A stretch of DNA of 57,744 bases from the NCBI GenBank assembly GCA_021817165.1, contig JAKAVT010000005.1, forward strand, positions 1 to 57,744, read 5' to 3'. The notes below the pieces were generated by a model. That model saw only the letters and a list, made by a program, of their open reading frames with translations. It did not search any database and had not been told where the DNA came from. Position 1 is the first letter of the stretch. Each line of letters starts with the position of its first letter. The translations under genes and the position numbers were made by a program. This document shows, in pieces, positions 15,634 through 41,692 of the stretch. This DNA is from Nanobdellota archaeon (GTDB lineage Archaea; Nanobdellota; Nanobdellia; Parvarchaeales; Parvarchaeaceae).

Positions 15634-16779
15634 ATGGAAAAGCTTAATGTAACGCCCTGGGAAGTAAACGGGGAGTTAAACGATAATGCTTACTCTAAAT
15701 TGGTGGAAAGATTCGGCGTTGATTTAATAAGCGATAATCTTTTGAACAGAATAAAAAAGATTGCAAACGGAAAGTTGCACCCTCTTCTTAGCAGAAGTGT
15801 TTTCTTTGCTCACAGGGAGCTTAATCTGGTTTTGGATGACTATGAGAATGGCAGGCCTTTTTACCTTTATACCGGCAGAGGACCTTCTGGGAAGATGCAC
15901 ATCGGTCATTTATTGCCATTTACGTTTACGCTTTGGCTGCAAAAAAATTTCAACGTTGATTTGTTGATACAGTTGACAGATGATGAGAAGTTTTTGGTAG
16001 GCAGCAAGGAAAAAAGCGAGATAGAGAGATTTACAAATGATAACATACTCGATATAATAAGTTTAGGTTTTGATCCGAAGAAGACGCACATAATAGCGGA
16101 TTACAAGAGCGCTAAAACTCTATATTACTATGCAACGGATGTGGCAAAGCACGTTACGGTATCAACTATAAAGGCGGTTTTTGGAGTTAATGACAGTGAT
16201 AATATAGGAAAGCTCTTCTTTCCGTCAATGCAAATAACTCCTGCATTTCTTCTTTCAGCTTTAAGTGGCAAGAAGATGAGGTGTCTTATACCATATGCCA
16301 TAGACCAGGACCCGTATTTCAGGGTTGCAAGAGACGTGCTTCCTAAATTGGGATATTACAAGCCGTCTGCAATAATCTCAAAGTTCCTGCCGGCTCTTCA
16401 GGGCAATTCCGCAAAAATGTCATCCTCCAAAGAGGAAAGCGCCATATTTTTGGATGACAGCAGGGAGCAGGTAAGAAAGAAGTTAATGAAATATGCGTTT
16501 TCAGGCGGAAAAGATACAGTGGAAGAACAGAGAAAGTACGGTGCAAATCCGAATATTGACTTTGCGTTTCTTGAATACAGCTTTTTAGAGGAGGACCAGA
16601 GAAAAGTCGATAAGGTATACCAAGATTACAAATCAGGTAAGATACTAAGCGGTGAAATGAAAGAAATGGCCGCTGAAAAGATATCGGATTTTCTTGAGAA
16701 ATTAAGGGAAAGAAGGGAAAGCATGAAAGACAGGGTAAACGAATATCTTTTTGATCCGGAGAAGCTGGATTTAGCCTAA
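15634..16779 (+). CDS. trpS: Tryptophanyl-tRNA synthetase (archaeal/eukaryotic type)
   Basis: YTGRGPSGKMHIGH, AIDQDPYFR, KMSSS. Confidence 0.96.
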   Translation: MEKLNVTPWEVNGELNDNAYSKLVERFGVDLISDNLLNRIKKIANGKLHPLLSRSVFFAHRELNLVLDDYENGRPFYLYTGRGPSGKMHIGHLLPFTFTLWLQKNFNVDLLIQLTDDEKFLVGSKEKSEIERFTNDNILDIISLGFDPKKTHIIADYKSAKTLYYYATDVAKHVTVSTIKAVFGVNDSDNIGKLFFPSMQITPAFLLSALSGKKMRCLIPYAIDQDPYFRVARDVLPKLGYYKPSAIISKFLPALQGNSAKMSSSKEESAIFLDDSREQVRKKLMKYAFSGGKDTVEEQRKYGANPNIDFAFLEYSFLEEDQRKVDKVYQDYKSGKILSGEMKEMAAEKISDFLEKLRERRESMKDRVNEYLFDPEKLDLA

Positions 16780-16938
16780 GATTATTTAATATTTTATAAT
16801 TCAGCGTACGTCTTGCTTTTTATGGTTTATATGCTCTTTAACGGCATTTTCTTACGTTAAAGGCTTATTCGGTGGAGGGCTTTGTGTAATAAGTCAAAAT
16901 TTGTTTAATAAGTCTGAAAGCTGTTTTAAAAGTTTTAT

Positions 16939-17088
16939 ATGGTAAAAAAACCTAAAACCGTTATGCCTCAATACATAACAGCTTTTGATCCGACAATTAA
17001 ACGACGTGTCCTTTTTATCGTGAGAAATGGCTGGGCAATTTCGGTAATTACTGGCTATAGATTTCCTTATAAACCGAGGCGTAGATAA
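16939..17088 (+). CDS. Small basic 49-aa protein (not in ORF track), putative partner/antitoxin
   Basis: MVKKPKTVMPQYITAFDPTIKRRVLFIVRNGWAISVITGYRFPYKPRRR*; its stop overlaps the next ATG (TAATG). Confidence 0.6.
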   Translation: MVKKPKTVMPQYITAFDPTIKRRVLFIVRNGWAISVITGYRFPYKPRRR

Positions 17089-17534
17089 TGTTTCTTAATC
17101 CAAGGGCTGTTGAATCTGCTCCAGAAACTATCATCCCAAAAATAGAAAAAGAGAAAAGTTCTATTGCTGCTTTATTCTTAGAATCCAGTGCTATAGAGAG
17201 TTATTTAAGTAGTTTTATATCGCTTACTGGTAAGAAAATGTCCAAAGGGACGCACACGCCTCACAATGGAGTTGAAGAATCCATTAAAAAAATGGGTTTT
17301 AATCAGCTGCTTAGTATAACAAATGACTTAGGGGTTATTAATGATAATCTATATAAAAAATTAAATAATTTTGCTGAGCGGAGAAACCAAATTGCGCATA
17401 ATTTAATTGGTATAGATCTAGACGCAATTGAAAATACAAATGAGATAAAGTCGCTTGTCTCTATCGGTTTAGAGTTATGCAAGAGCCTTTCAAAATTACA
17501 TACTGAAATGCTTTACTCTTTAACGGAAAAATAA
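17088..17534 (+). CDS. HEPN-motif protein, putative RNase toxin
   Basis: Helical 148-aa protein with RNQIAH (R-x4-H) and an upstream AIESYL (E) segment. Confidence 0.65.
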   Translation: MFLNPRAVESAPETIIPKIEKEKSSIAALFLESSAIESYLSSFISLTGKKMSKGTHTPHNGVEESIKKMGFNQLLSITNDLGVINDNLYKKLNNFAERRNQIAHNLIGIDLDAIENTNEIKSLVSIGLELCKSLSKLHTEMLYSLTEK

Positions 17535-17661
17535 AGAAATTCCTAAAAATGGTACCTCCTGGCCTGTAAATAAATACTTCTAAATTTCCTTTTTTGTAAA
17601 TAGTGCTCTTTTTGCCTAATGGCAGTTTCTTTACTATCTCAAAGACCTTTGATTTGTCCAT
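17461..17661 (-). pseudogene. Probable truncated passenger gene inside the cassette
   Basis: Protein-like N-terminus MDKSKVFEIVKKLPLGKKSTIYKKGNLEVFIYRPGG, then runs 74 nt into the antisense of the HEPN gene. Confidence 0.35.
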
Positions 17662-17749
17662 ATTAGAACAAAGCAATACTTGTTTAAAAAGTCAAGGATT
17701 TGTTTAAAAAGTAAGACTATTTACACAAAGCTTCGGTGGAGCAAAAGTA

Positions 17750-17786
17750 TTTATATTGGTAATTATATATAATTATTAGTAATTAT
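17750..17786 (+). promoter_or_regulatory. TATA box plus putative RHH operator
   Basis: TTTATAT 17750-17756; TAATTAT at 17760, 17770 and 17780 (10-bp period); perfect palindrome TAATTATATATAATTA 17760-17775. Confidence 0.5.
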
Positions 17787-18006
17787 GGAAGAACAAAAAT
17801 TCACAACGGTTTCAATTCCTAAGCCTTTGGCTGATAAAGCCAAAAAGCTCATAGAGAAAACCGGCTTTACGTCGCTTTCGAGTTTTGTGGAATATCTCTT
17901 GAGGGAGATAGTTTCGGAAAGCAATGAAGACAAAAAAGGACGGGAAGGAAAGGATCAGCAGGTGCTTGATCTTGAAGACAAGCTCAGAAAACTGGGCTAT
18001 ATGTAG
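17785..18006 (+). CDS. CopG/ribbon-helix-helix transcriptional regulator
   Basis: TTVSIPKPLAD...TGFTSLSSFVEYLLRE RHH pattern. Confidence 0.85.
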   Translation: MEEQKFTTVSIPKPLADKAKKLIEKTGFTSLSSFVEYLLREIVSESNEDKKGREGKDQQVLDLEDKLRKLGYM

Positions 18007-18015
18007 GAGGTAAAC

Positions 18016-18846
18016 ATGGAAAATGAACAATATTCTGTCAAGAAGCAAAGAATAGAAGGAGGATTAAGTCTCGATGCAAAGGAGGAAATTGCGCTCATAG
18101 TCATAAAAGATGCGTTGAAAAGATATAACCGGCCAACAGTCGTCTGGAGCGCGGGCAAGGACAGCACGGTGGTTTTAGACCTTGTAAGGAGGGCCTGCAA
18201 GGATTTGAACATGCAGTTGCCGCCCGCGTTGTTTATAGACCATGGTCAGCATTACGATGAAACAATGAAAATGCTTGAAGAGATAAGCAGAGAGTGGGGT
18301 TTTAAGATGATATATGCGAAGAACGAAGACGTTATTAAAAACGTTAGAAATGATAACATGATAAAGGTCAGCAGCCTTAACAAGTTAAACCAGGATGAAG
18401 CTAAAAGAATAGGTTTCAATGGGGAAGAATTCGAATACAGCTTGGAAACGGAAGTGGGAAACCACCTTCTGAAAACAGTTGCTATGAATCTTACCATAGA
18501 AAAATACAGGTTTGATGCGCTTTTTACCGGAGTAAGGTGGGATGAAAACGAAGCAAGATCCATGGAGGTTTTCATAAGCCCAAGGTCTCATCCAGATCAC
18601 GTTAGAGTGCAGCCAATACTGCCGTTTACCGAGAGAAATGTATGGGAATACATCTTTAAGCACAAATTACCGGTTCATCCGCTATACAAATTGGGCTACA
18701 GGTCAATAGACGGTAAACTGGATTCAAAGAAGACAAGCGATTTACCGGCGTGGGAGCAGGACTTAGAACACACCAAAGAAAGGGCCGGCAGATCACAGGA
18801 CAAAGAAGGAGTAATGGAAAAACTCAGGCTTTTCGGCTACATGTGA
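18016..18846 (+). CDS. PAPS-reductase-family PP-loop protein, CysD-like (sulfate adenylyltransferase subunit 2)
   Basis: WSAGKDSTVV PP-loop, TGVRWDENEAR, HPLYKLGYRSI, ERAGRSQDKE; SD AGGAGGT upstream. Confidence 0.75.
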   Translation: MENEQYSVKKQRIEGGLSLDAKEEIALIVIKDALKRYNRPTVVWSAGKDSTVVLDLVRRACKDLNMQLPPALFIDHGQHYDETMKMLEEISREWGFKMIYAKNEDVIKNVRNDNMIKVSSLNKLNQDEAKRIGFNGEEFEYSLETEVGNHLLKTVAMNLTIEKYRFDALFTGVRWDENEARSMEVFISPRSHPDHVRVQPILPFTERNVWEYIFKHKLPVHPLYKLGYRSIDGKLDSKKTSDLPAWEQDLEHTKERAGRSQDKEGVMEKLRLFGYM

Positions 18847-40165: not shown

Positions 40166-41692
40166 ATGGAAGAAAAAAATGTCATAAAGATGCTAAACAA
40201 GACCGATAAGGTCCTTCTTTCCAACCTTGAAAACAAAGAGATGTTTTCCAACGAGATAGAGTTAAAAAGCGGGCTCGACAGGATTACAGTTATAAATTCA
40301 GCACGGAAGCTTTTCTCCCTCTCTCTTGTTAGCATAGAAAGCATAACTGGAACGACGCTTAGGCTTACTTCCCTTGGGCAGAAATACCTGAAAGAAGGGC
40401 TTCCGGAATATAGAGTATTCAATTTCGTAAGGCGCAATGAAACGGTGGAATATAAACAACTTTTCTCCAGCGTCCCGATGGAAAAGGATGAATTAAACGC
40501 TGCGATAGGGGTGCTTAAAAGATTGCTTGCGATAAGCGTAGATAACGGCAGGATCACTGCAAACGCCGGAAAATCGGCGGAAATAGACGAAAGAAATGCA
40601 GTTTTACAGTCGGTGGAGAAGGGGCAAAAAACAGATTACGCAGGAACTGAAGATCTCATAAGACGCGGAATAATCGAACAAGTAGACGAGATAAGGGAAA
40701 AGATTTCGATAACTCCTGCCGGCATAAAAGTACTCAAAGACGCCGGATTTAATGCCGAATACATAGACAAGCTGTCCGCCAGCAACATTAAAAATTGGGA
40801 GGGCCTGAATTTCAGGGAGTACAGCGCGAAACCCGAGATTCTTAATTCATTATCCGGCAAAATCAACATAAAGACAAAGTTTATCTCATTGATAAAGGAT
40901 GCAATGTTATCCATGGGCTTTTCGGAGATGCACAGTAATTATATAGAATCGACGTTCTGGAATTTTGACGTAATGATGTTTAGACAGGACCATCCTGACA
41001 GGGATATACAGGACACTGTTTATTTGAATGGCGGGAAGGGAAGCATACCTGTCGGGATTCTAAAAAACGTGAAGGACGTTTACGAAAGAGGATTTTTTTC
41101 GTCAAAATACAACGAGTCAATCGGCTACAGAAGGAAATTTGATACTTCTAAAAGCGATTCGCTCATAATGCGGGGACACACCACTGCTACAACCTTCAGG
41201 TACATATACGAATTCATATCCAAGAACAAGGATAAACCTGCTAAGTTTTTTTCAGTCGACAAAGGATTCAGGAACGAAACGATGGACAATACTCACCTGC
41301 TTGAGCTTTACCAGATAGAAGGAGTAGTGTACGATGACAATCTAACAGTATCCGACCTTATCGGTTACATAAGGCAATTTTACGGAAAGATAGGGATAAA
41401 AAAGATAAGGCTTAAGCCTACTTACAATCCGTACACCGAGCCGAGTCTGGAGATACAGGCCTTCAGTCCCAAGCTAAAAAGATGGTTAGAGGTGGGAAAT
41501 TCGGGCGTATTCAGACCGGAGACTCTCAGACCGTTTGGAATAAGCAAAAACATAGTTGCATGGGGTTTCGGGATGGAAAGGATGCTTAACCTTAAGCTTG
41601 GCATGGCGGACATACGCGACCTTTACGGCGCATATACCGACATTGATCTTTTGCGTGAGATGGAGTCGGTGAGGGCATTCAGCGATTTTTGA
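40166..41692 (+). CDS. pheS: Phenylalanyl-tRNA synthetase alpha subunit
   Basis: FWNFD, QDHPDRDIQDT, MRGHTT, FRNE, YNPYTEPSLE, WGFGMER. Confidence 0.95.
   Translation: MEEKNVIKMLNKTDKVLLSNLENKEMFSNEIELKSGLDRITVINSARKLFSLSLVSIESITGTTLRLTSLGQKYLKEGLPEYRVFNFVRRNETVEYKQLFSSVPMEKDELNAAIGVLKRLLAISVDNGRITANAGKSAEIDERNAVLQSVEKGQKTDYAGTEDLIRRGIIEQVDEIREKISITPAGIKVLKDAGFNAEYIDKLSASNIKNWEGLNFREYSAKPEILNSLSGKINIKTKFISLIKDAMLSMGFSEMHSNYIESTFWNFDVMMFRQDHPDRDIQDTVYLNGGKGSIPVGILKNVKDVYERGFFSSKYNESIGYRRKFDTSKSDSLIMRGHTTATTFRYIYEFISKNKDKPAKFFSVDKGFRNETMDNTHLLELYQIEGVVYDDNLTVSDLIGYIRQFYGKIGIKKIRLKPTYNPYTEPSLEIQAFSPKLKRWLEVGNSGVFRPETLRPFGISKNIVAWGFGMERMLNLKLGMADIRDLYGAYTDIDLLREMESVRAFSDF

Follow-up and report, generated by a model that had tools for sequence, protein, structure and literature searches.

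Here we describe an 855-bp element that lacks a transposase gene, at positions 16878-17732 of contig JAKAVT010000005.1 from the assembly GCA_021817165.1 of a Nanobdellota archaeon; the window analysed is the whole 57,744-nt stretch of this contig. The element lies between a tRNA synthetase gene and the promoter of a small ribbon-helix-helix (RHH) gene. Its terminal inverted repeats (TIRs) of 18 bp, flanked by a perfect 9-bp target duplication, enclose two overlapping genes, a short open reading frame (ORF1) and a gene for a minimal HEPN-domain protein (Table 1). We consider it likely that this is a recent, non-autonomous cassette of the IS5 type, mobilised in trans, which inserted beside the RHH promoter and carries an operon for a HEPN RNase toxin and a small partner protein. 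Standard annotation overlooks such an element because no transposase gene marks it.

The boundaries had been proposed in a sequence-only reading of the window, and direct reading and pattern search confirmed them in full: the 855-bp length, the ends GGCTTTGTGTAATAAGTC and AGCTTTGTGTAAATAGTC, identical at 15 of 18 positions, and the perfect duplication. With up to three mismatches, the left-end 18-mer matches twice in the window, at the two element ends and in inverted orientation (expected 0.08); two or more matches were obtained in 2 of 100 shuffles. The 9-mer TCGGTGGAG has three copies (16869, 17733 and 40610; expected 0.08), a number reached in none of 100 shuffles, and the third copy, at 40610-40618, is probably there by chance. 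An inner motif of the ends, TTGTTTAAWAAGT, recurs inside both of them, with two extra direct copies on the left and two on the right, the latter preceding the inverted terminal copy. The left-hand copies overlap a putative promoter of the cargo operon, suggested by the spacing of about 32 nt between TTTTAAAA and the ATG at 16963. On the right, positions 17680-17731 are 94% identical to a MITE (miniature inverted-repeat transposable element) of a relative, G006. When the three ORFs in the element were scanned with Pfam and NCBIfam models, the 148-aa ORF alone gave matches, weak ones to HEPN, and no transposase appeared, as the earlier reading had claimed, and the four matches of an Rfam scan were every one far under the gathering score. 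Two of the passenger ORFs form a module; the third, a minus-strand frame of 71 aa at 17461-17676, is probably not a gene. It matches no Pfam or NCBIfam model, and its 5' DNA is kept in an element of G029:C7, but there ATA stands at the start codon and the element carries other cargo.

Table 1. Features of the element and its surroundings in the window, followed by the cargo of sibling cassettes and copies of a related insertion sequence (IS).
Feature	Location	Strand	Basis or remark
Upstream neighbour, Trp/Tyr-type class I tRNA synthetase, outside the element	15634..16779	+	PF00579, E 7.3e-31
9-bp target duplication TCGGTGGAG, left copy	16869..16877	.	Direct reading; single copy left in empty-site contigs
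Left terminal inverted repeat GGCTTTGTGTAATAAGTC	16878..16895	+	Pattern search
Two direct inner-motif copies, TTGTTTAATAAGTC and GCTGTTTTAAAAGT, overlapping the BRE/TATA-like putative cargo-operon promoter	16901..16941	+	Repeat family; spacing
ORF1, 49 aa, candidate partner or antitoxin; conserved core from Met9 (16963)	16939..17088	+	Homologues, beta model
148-aa minimal HEPN-domain protein, candidate RNase toxin or defence effector	17088..17534	+	PF18735, relatives, model
Codons of the R99-N100-x3-H104 motif	17382..17399	+	Invariant in 35/35 aligned members
Right end, non-coding inner part	17535..17679	.	Without family match; no Rfam match above threshold
Two direct inner-motif copies, TTGTTTAAAAAGTC and TTGTTTAAAAAGTA	17680..17713	+	Arrangement as in the G006 MITE
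Right terminal inverted repeat AGCTTTGTGTAAATAGTC (reverse complement)	17715..17732	-	Pattern search
9-bp target duplication TCGGTGGAG, right copy	17733..17741	.	Perfect match to left copy
Host RHH-gene promoter CAAAAGTATTTATAT and three TAATTAT repeats	17742..17784	+	Kept in empty-site contigs
73-aa RHH gene	17785..18006	+	Weak RHH_1/DUF6364 matches
HicA and HicB cargo	L103		
N6 methylase and type I specificity subunit cargo	G029:C42		
DUF3800 and GmrSD-like cargo	L164		
Second GmrSD-like cargo gene	L195		
SIR2-like cargo gene	L200		
Schlafen/AlbA_2 cargo protein	L198		
967-bp IS copies of G019	L302 781-1747; L304 653-1619; L306 196-1162		

The insertion was caught in a polymorphic state. Twenty public runs contain parts of window 16500-18100, and four of them were examined (X7, X10, X13 and X15, from studies P4-P7), which are metagenomes of mine drainage, tailings and sediment from four studies. 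All four contain empty-site contigs that join 16867 to 17732, skipping 864 bases, that is, the 855-bp element and one 9-bp duplicate, with flank pieces that differ from the window at 0-3 letters. Contig depth, which is a rough figure, was 30-53 for the bridging contigs and, in those runs, 0-5.5 across the interior of the element, the exception being a depth of 17 in X10 over 17580-17687, where sibling ends map too. The empty allele clearly exists alongside the filled one; the insertion is recent, as had been surmised from the intact duplication, and natural populations are still polymorphic for it. Among the 33 genomes of the genus, 24 have the RHH gene; in G005, G017, G011 and G013 the tryptophanyl-tRNA synthetase (TrpRS) gene lies directly upstream of it at an empty junction, and in seven others a membrane-protein gene stands between the two. 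The HEPN gene was found in 0 of the 32 other genus genomes, and no genus relative was seen to carry the same cargo outside these boundaries.

The element belongs to a widespread archaeal family that shares its ends. As a whole it has no other match in its own 762-kb assembly; its ends, and not its cargo, match in 5 of 60 relatives. The MITE of G006 consists of both ends alone, 96 bp with its own perfect duplication CATCCGATA, and itself matches 9 of the 33 genus genomes. The search for siblings by their TIRs that the sequence-only reading had suggested was productive: the end pattern GGCTTTGTKTAWAWAGTC, with at most two mismatches, gave 87 matches against 15 for the reversed control, spread over 27 of the 33 genus genomes, and led to cassettes with different cargo. 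With the empty site, these further end copies and no genus relative that carries the cargo outside the boundaries, all three conditions that the reading had named as refuting it turned out in its favour. An exact scan with one genome per species returned at least 120 stretches. Among the matches listed, inverted pairs with duplications come from Woesearchaeota, Pacearchaeota, Nanoarchaeota, Nitrososphaera and Methanosarcinaceae, in archaeal records only, and the single bacterial end pair is 5.3 kb apart and without a duplication. Two Methanosarcinaceae metagenome-assembled genomes (MAGs) have 41 and 39 matches to the end pattern (controls 3 and 2), and a Nitrososphaera MAG has 13 (control 0). 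The duplication is identical at 9/9 positions in 13 and at 8/9 in five of the 24 elements with both ends, all of them different, and family members range from 47-bp MITEs to 5.7-kb cassettes. A viral route was also considered, and each of 33 IMG/VR stretches had one exact end match, with an inverted pair in none.

The window's own genome, G000, contains a second, degenerate member (G000:C2:16852-17237; 386 bp) with the ends GGCTTTGTCTATAAAGTA and GTCATTGTGCAATAAGTC, flanking 9-mers alike at 7/9 positions and a small minus-strand ORF within; on the opposite strand, a GAAAGCTTTAAATAC promoter stands 9 nt from its left flank. At L015 575-1603 (G024:C52), each end of a cassette is a whole MITE and the duplication TCTTAGGGA surrounds the composite, a hint that MITE pairs capture genes. 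In the Methanosarcinaceae MAGs, the cassettes L195, L197 and L198 (CCATCAATG), as well as L194 and L200 (CACACCATC), have near-identical 9-mers and flanks, so these cassettes may occupy a preferred site or copies of some other repeat.

Sibling cassettes measure 0.47-5.7 kb, and their cargo varies between copies. In addition to the genes in Table 1, it includes a SAM methyltransferase, a HAD-like protein, a secreted Cys-rich protein and a response-regulator receiver. The Pfam cut-off was passed by nine of ten cargo proteins (HicA, HicB, N6_Mtase, Methylase_S, DUF3800, GmrSD_N twice, SIR2_2 and SLFN AlbA_2), and no transposase ORF was seen in any sibling cassette inspected. Another 148-aa HEPN-like cargo protein, in L109, has no detectable similarity to the HEPN protein of the window (BLASTP E 0.31).

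The HEPN assignment made in the sequence-only reading is upheld by conservation and structure. Among 1.84 billion representative sequences the protein has 49 relatives at E<=1e-3, and in an alignment of 35 of them R99, N100 and H104 are the sole invariant columns; the RiboL-PSP HEPN model (PF18735) matches 10 of these 35 weakly. Its AlphaFold model is a six-helix bundle (pLDDT 89.8), for which exhaustive structural alignment ranks HEPN proteins first, with 2hsb_A at the top (Z 10.6, root-mean-square deviation (rmsd) 3.0, 113 residues) and HEPN toxins close behind (7ae2_A, Z 10.0, rmsd 3.6, 118 aligned; 8xdj_A and 5yep_B, 9.8). A word-index search matched only two proteins, NCBIfam models stayed far under their cut-offs, and homologues are present in only 5 of 400 other genomes of the class, at 25-30% identity and without family ends.

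The ORF1 stop overlaps the HEPN start (TAATG). ORF1 is a real gene, as it has a 78% identical homologue on the unrelated metagenome contig L237, five further homologues and 23 invariant positions. The L237 copy lies upstream of a HEPN homologue and beside an HsdR-like gene, one ORF1 homologue apparently shares a contig with the closest HEPN relative, and the gene pair is conserved in three contexts. The conserved form of ORF1 is 41-49 aa long and is modelled as a four-stranded beta protein (pLDDT 85.5); it matched no Pfam or NCBIfam family and had no usable ESM Atlas match. Neither in ORF1 nor in the minus-strand ORF did Pfam or NCBIfam models find an MNT nucleotidyltransferase domain. A complex of HEPN protein and ORF1 was predicted with a score of 0.42, which is weak, against 0.01 for the best of three controls; the runs agree in at least 5% of contacts and the partner has a pLDDT of at least 61. 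Of 80 solved complexes, 58 attained the mark for this score, as did 2 of 110 mismatched pairs; at 0.60 or less it was attained by only seven of the 80 and by both mismatches. From these observations we infer a toxin-antitoxin (TA)-like or abortive-infection module.

The transposase that moves the cassette was approached through its ends. The 15/18 likeness of the left end to IS903, stated in the sequence-only reading, holds against the record of IS903B in Citrobacter plasmid NZ_CP045556.1 (1057 bp, ends GGTTTTGTTGAATAAATC and GGCTTTGTTGAATAAATC), whose right end GGCTTTGTTGAATAAATC agrees with the element's left end at 15/18 and with its right end at 12/18 positions. PMC9769513 states that the direct repeats of IS903B are 9 bp long. 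This likeness stands for the ends and the duplication length and does not extend to the transposases, for the related autonomous ISs L291, L282 and L285 have PF01609 without PF13737. The architecture of IS903-group transposases, PF13737 plus PF01609, is carried by an ORF in L022, and a genus IS with both domains has other ends and an 8-bp duplication.

Relatives with similar ends were found within the class and the genus. The left end is 17/18 identical to an end beside a transposase in G176:C1. In G347:C43, of the same class, an IS of 1111 bp has the ends GGCTATGTGTAAAAACTA and AGCTATGTGTAAAAATTA, 14/18 to those of the element, the duplication AAGATTATA on both sides and one 322-aa IS5-family transposase (PF01609 25 bits, cut-off 23; NF033579 E 2e-25, under its cut-off); it is a single copy, with no derivatives in that genome. 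G019, of the same genus, has a multi-copy IS of 967 bp with the ends GGCTCTGTAGAAATCC, 9-bp duplications and a 304-aa transposase, and G010 has an IS of 1256 bp with the ends GGCTTTGGGACAAAAGTC and a 9-bp duplication. Since these class and genus ISs have GGCT.TG ends and 9-bp duplications, the cassettes appear to derive from an archaeal IS5-family clade. In G009:C25 a related 376-aa transposase, together with methylase genes, is 2.4 kb from a family right end.

The autonomous partner that the same TIR search had been expected to reveal was not recovered with the exact ends, only these related IS5-family ISs. The search comprised PF01609 in the 33 genus genomes, PF13737 in 401 class genomes (nine with a match), inverted-repeat scans (39 transposase loci), tblastn of two transposases against the collected loci, and PF01609 and the G010 transposase in Methanosarcinaceae, Nitrososphaera and Nanoarchaeota genomes; none of these returned a transposase adjoining a matching end pair. 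The transposase profile A5, with matches in 86 of the 401 class genomes, yielded the G347 IS as well as one-ended cases (L282, L284, L285, L288 and L298) whose second end was not found.

Several side observations concern these ISs. G019 has 32 PF01609 matches, far above its relatives. At L022 1095-3431 (G010:C10), the 1256-bp IS is inserted at the extreme end of another IS5-family IS, and its duplication CAGGCATTA begins in the last base of the first IS. In three genomes, L291-like transposase genes have a small, divergently oriented RHH-like gene upstream (L282 800-990, L288 2500-2640 and L285 430-600), and beside a transposase gene at L034 2343-3389 (G029:C31), 313 nt of coding sequence are duplicated in inverted, near-perfect form.

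An unexpected trait of the elements and their autonomous relatives is where they insert. The host promoter CAAAAGTATTTATAT begins directly after the right duplication, 34 nt upstream of the RHH start, and the three TAATTAT repeats between TATA and start codon are likely an operator. This promoter region is conserved in the RHH loci of 24 of the 33 genus genomes, and a PAPS-reductase-like gene is a downstream neighbour along with the RHH gene. Most DPANN elements of the family have on one flank 9 nt followed by [CG]AAAG..TTTATA, that is, a B recognition element (BRE) and TATA box, and a gene begins 45-52 nt away from the end of the element. The strict motif lies 8-12 nt from an end in 10 of 19 DPANN elements, compared with 2196 of 300,920 background positions (0.73%; binomial 3.5e-14, for a motif picked after seeing the data). 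All five autonomous IS copies have a TATA-like stretch right after the duplication. Two cassettes adjoin another family end, at 9 nt, in place of a promoter, and the family ends themselves contain the TATA-like TTTATAAA. The RHH promoter is itself a recurrent landing site. In a regular-expression search of 25 loci, five had family ends upstream of the RHH orthologue at the promoter offset, further insertions were recognised by eye (G029:C7, G009:C3 and G009:C25), and the site is used in at least eight genus loci, including L217, L218, L220, L222, L223, L224 and L230. Each of these loci has a different 9-mer and different cargo, which indicates independent insertions at one hotspot.

Some of the results weigh against the interpretation as a trans-mobilised toxin cassette and have to be set beside the alternatives. 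It is scarcely credible that the ends and the 9-bp repeat are chance matches, or that a deletion between pre-existing 9-bp repeats took place instead of an insertion. Granted, 9-mers can recur, as the third copy of TCGGTGGAG does at 40610, two 18-mer matches at three mismatches appeared in 2 of 100 shuffles, and a deletion between direct repeats would yield the same empty contig; yet 13 other elements in other genomes have the same ends with perfect 9-bp repeats, all different, sister species have the orthologous junction without the element, and a search for the cargo in the 32 other genus genomes found it in none. Concerning the mover, G000 has no match to PF01609 or to profile A5 (it is 89.8% complete, and absence is not proven), no autonomous element with the exact ends was found in the searches described above, and the IS5-family ISs that were found have ends with at least 4 of 18 positions unlike those of the element. 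If the mover were a site-specific recombinase, a casposase or a Tn7-like machine and the IS903 likeness a coincidence, this would accommodate cassettes without a transposase and a missing exact partner, as well as the small RHH genes that adjoin related transposases; precise targeting and several subterminal repeats are also reminiscent of Tn7-like elements. We nonetheless judge such a mover very improbable, given that autonomous ISs of the same class and genus combine related GGCT.TG ends, 9-bp duplications and a single IS5-family transposase ORF, and share the promoter-side position. The duplications also vary between sites, unlike att recombination, and Tn7-like elements make duplications of 5 bp and casposons of about 14-15 bp.

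The function of the cargo and the choice of target are less firmly settled. The HEPN ORF scores just below the cut-off of PF18735 (E 2.6e-6; 27.9 bits, cut-off 28.4), Foldseek of its model against the PDB gave no match at E<=1e-3, a structural Z of about 10 is common among helical bundles, and its distant homologues in other genera lack TIRs. For ORF1, the structural search produced no convincing fold match (best Z 4.5), and one of the three runs of the complex prediction scored 0.01. At L237 1719-2126 the HEPN homologue has in-frame stops and the adjoining ORF1 homologue is intact, as if the toxin had decayed first, which fits the decay of an addiction module and other readings too. A rival reading of the cargo is that the HEPN protein is a non-catalytic regulator of HEPN fold or an RNA-processing enzyme, and ORF1 an unrelated small protein. 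The MtlR/YggD regulators among the top Foldseek rows, the weak complex score, homologues that stand alone in other genera and the lack of an MNT or other known antitoxin all agree with it. We find it doubtful: R-N-x3-H is invariant in 35/35 members, and HEPN-fold regulators need not keep this motif; the two genes overlap at stop and start, are adjacent and co-occur in three contexts; and defence and TA genes abound in sibling cassettes. As for the target, the position 9 bp upstream of promoters could simply be where insertions survive, harmlessly, in a gene-dense genome. With high coding density, an insertion that fell within a gene, or separated it from its promoter, would not persist, and the promoter motif was defined after inspection of the data. 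This explanation we hold to be unlikely, as 98 nt are available between the TrpRS stop and the BRE, and yet the independent insertions lie 9-12 nt from the RHH promoter; the motif stands at the offset in 10 of 19 DPANN elements against the 0.73% background, and in 5/5 autonomous IS copies; and two elements are 9 nt from another family end instead of a promoter. A transposase that reads promoter-like DNA is favoured over selection alone leaving such copies. Our wider proposal is tentative, and we hold it to be somewhat less likely than not: an archaeal IS5-family clade, with its MITEs and cassettes, would actively choose as targets the points exactly 9 bp upstream of BRE/TATA promoters or of family ends, and this safe-site targeting would aid persistence, gene capture by MITE pairs and the shuttling of defence and TA genes across phyla. 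Targeting may perhaps work via DNA bent by TBP/TFB or via a promoter that mimics a transposon end.

MICs (mobile insertion cassettes) are defined, in the available text of PMC6199540, as two IS-type inverted repeats without a transposase that enclose one or more passenger genes, 0.7-3 kb in size and moved in trans. The element has IS-related inverted repeats, passenger genes without a transposase, a target duplication and evidence of movement, and in the first two and in its size it resembles MIC231 of Bacillus cereus, derived from IS231 of the IS4 family. In contrast to MIC231, the archaeal family has IS5/IS903-type ends and 9-bp duplications, occurs in three archaeal phylum-level groups, spans 47 bp to 5.7 kb, carries mostly defence and TA cargo and is promoter-adjacent, and its mobilisation in trans is our deduction. 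Its likeness to IS903 and IS903B is limited to the 18-bp ends (left end 15/18) and the 9-bp duplication; the element is without a transposase, and the related autonomous ISs have IS5-family transposases without PF13737. The short members (47-236 bp) are ordinary MITEs, and a high MITE density in a Woesearchaeal genome is reported in the available text of PMC11602168. Unlike those MITEs, the same ends here carry whole gene modules; the main text of that paper, as far as available, does not contain the word 'cargo', and the family may be in its lists. The kind is known from bacteria as the MIC, and the archaeal variant was not found in print: in the literature we found no description of this archaeal family, of archaeal MICs or of TATA-adjacent IS targeting, and MITE catalogues may list the short members.

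With about 150 aa, a helical fold and R-x4-H, the HEPN protein resembles minimal HEPN toxins such as HepT of the HEPN-MNT type VII TA systems, RiboL-PSP HEPN and prophage HepS. The element differs from HepT/HEPN-MNT in having no MNT partner and in its place upstream a beta protein of 41-49 aa that matched no known family. Tn7 selects attTn7, and yeast Ty3 inserts at Pol III start sites. Like these, the family inserts at a fixed distance from a functional landmark and leaves host genes intact; unlike them, its landmark is a BRE/TATA promoter or a family end, and its transposases are single-ORF and IS5-type.

The mechanism we envisage begins with two IS5-family-type inverted ends that enclose cargo in the manner of a MIC, the extra inner-motif copies being putative transposase binding sites. 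An IS5-clade DDE transposase would be supplied in trans by an autonomous relative outside this assembly and would cut the target with a 9-bp stagger and set the cassette 9 bp upstream of the RHH gene's BRE/TATA promoter without damage to it. The cargo would be expressed as a single operon from its own promoter in the left end, and the HEPN protein is most likely an RNase toxin that the small beta protein would restrain, in TA or abortive infection.

Little is known about how defence genes are acquired and lost in DPANN archaea, whose genomes are minimal and which rely on hosts. One strain population is caught in the act here, with and without an 855-bp cassette. The family indicates that transposase-free shells can move whole defence and TA modules in Archaea, with the same type of end common to DPANN, ammonia oxidisers and methanogens and with insertions placed beside promoters, where they are harmless. 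If the targeting is active, it would be a prokaryotic parallel to the promoter- and Pol III-targeted transposons of eukaryotes and might serve as a tool for inserting DNA at safe sites in archaea. It would also help to explain how the family persists in DPANN genomes of 0.7 Mb, and MITE pairs may then capture whole transcription units and serve as a shuttle of defence and TA genes across phyla, between DPANN, Nitrososphaera and Methanosarcinaceae.

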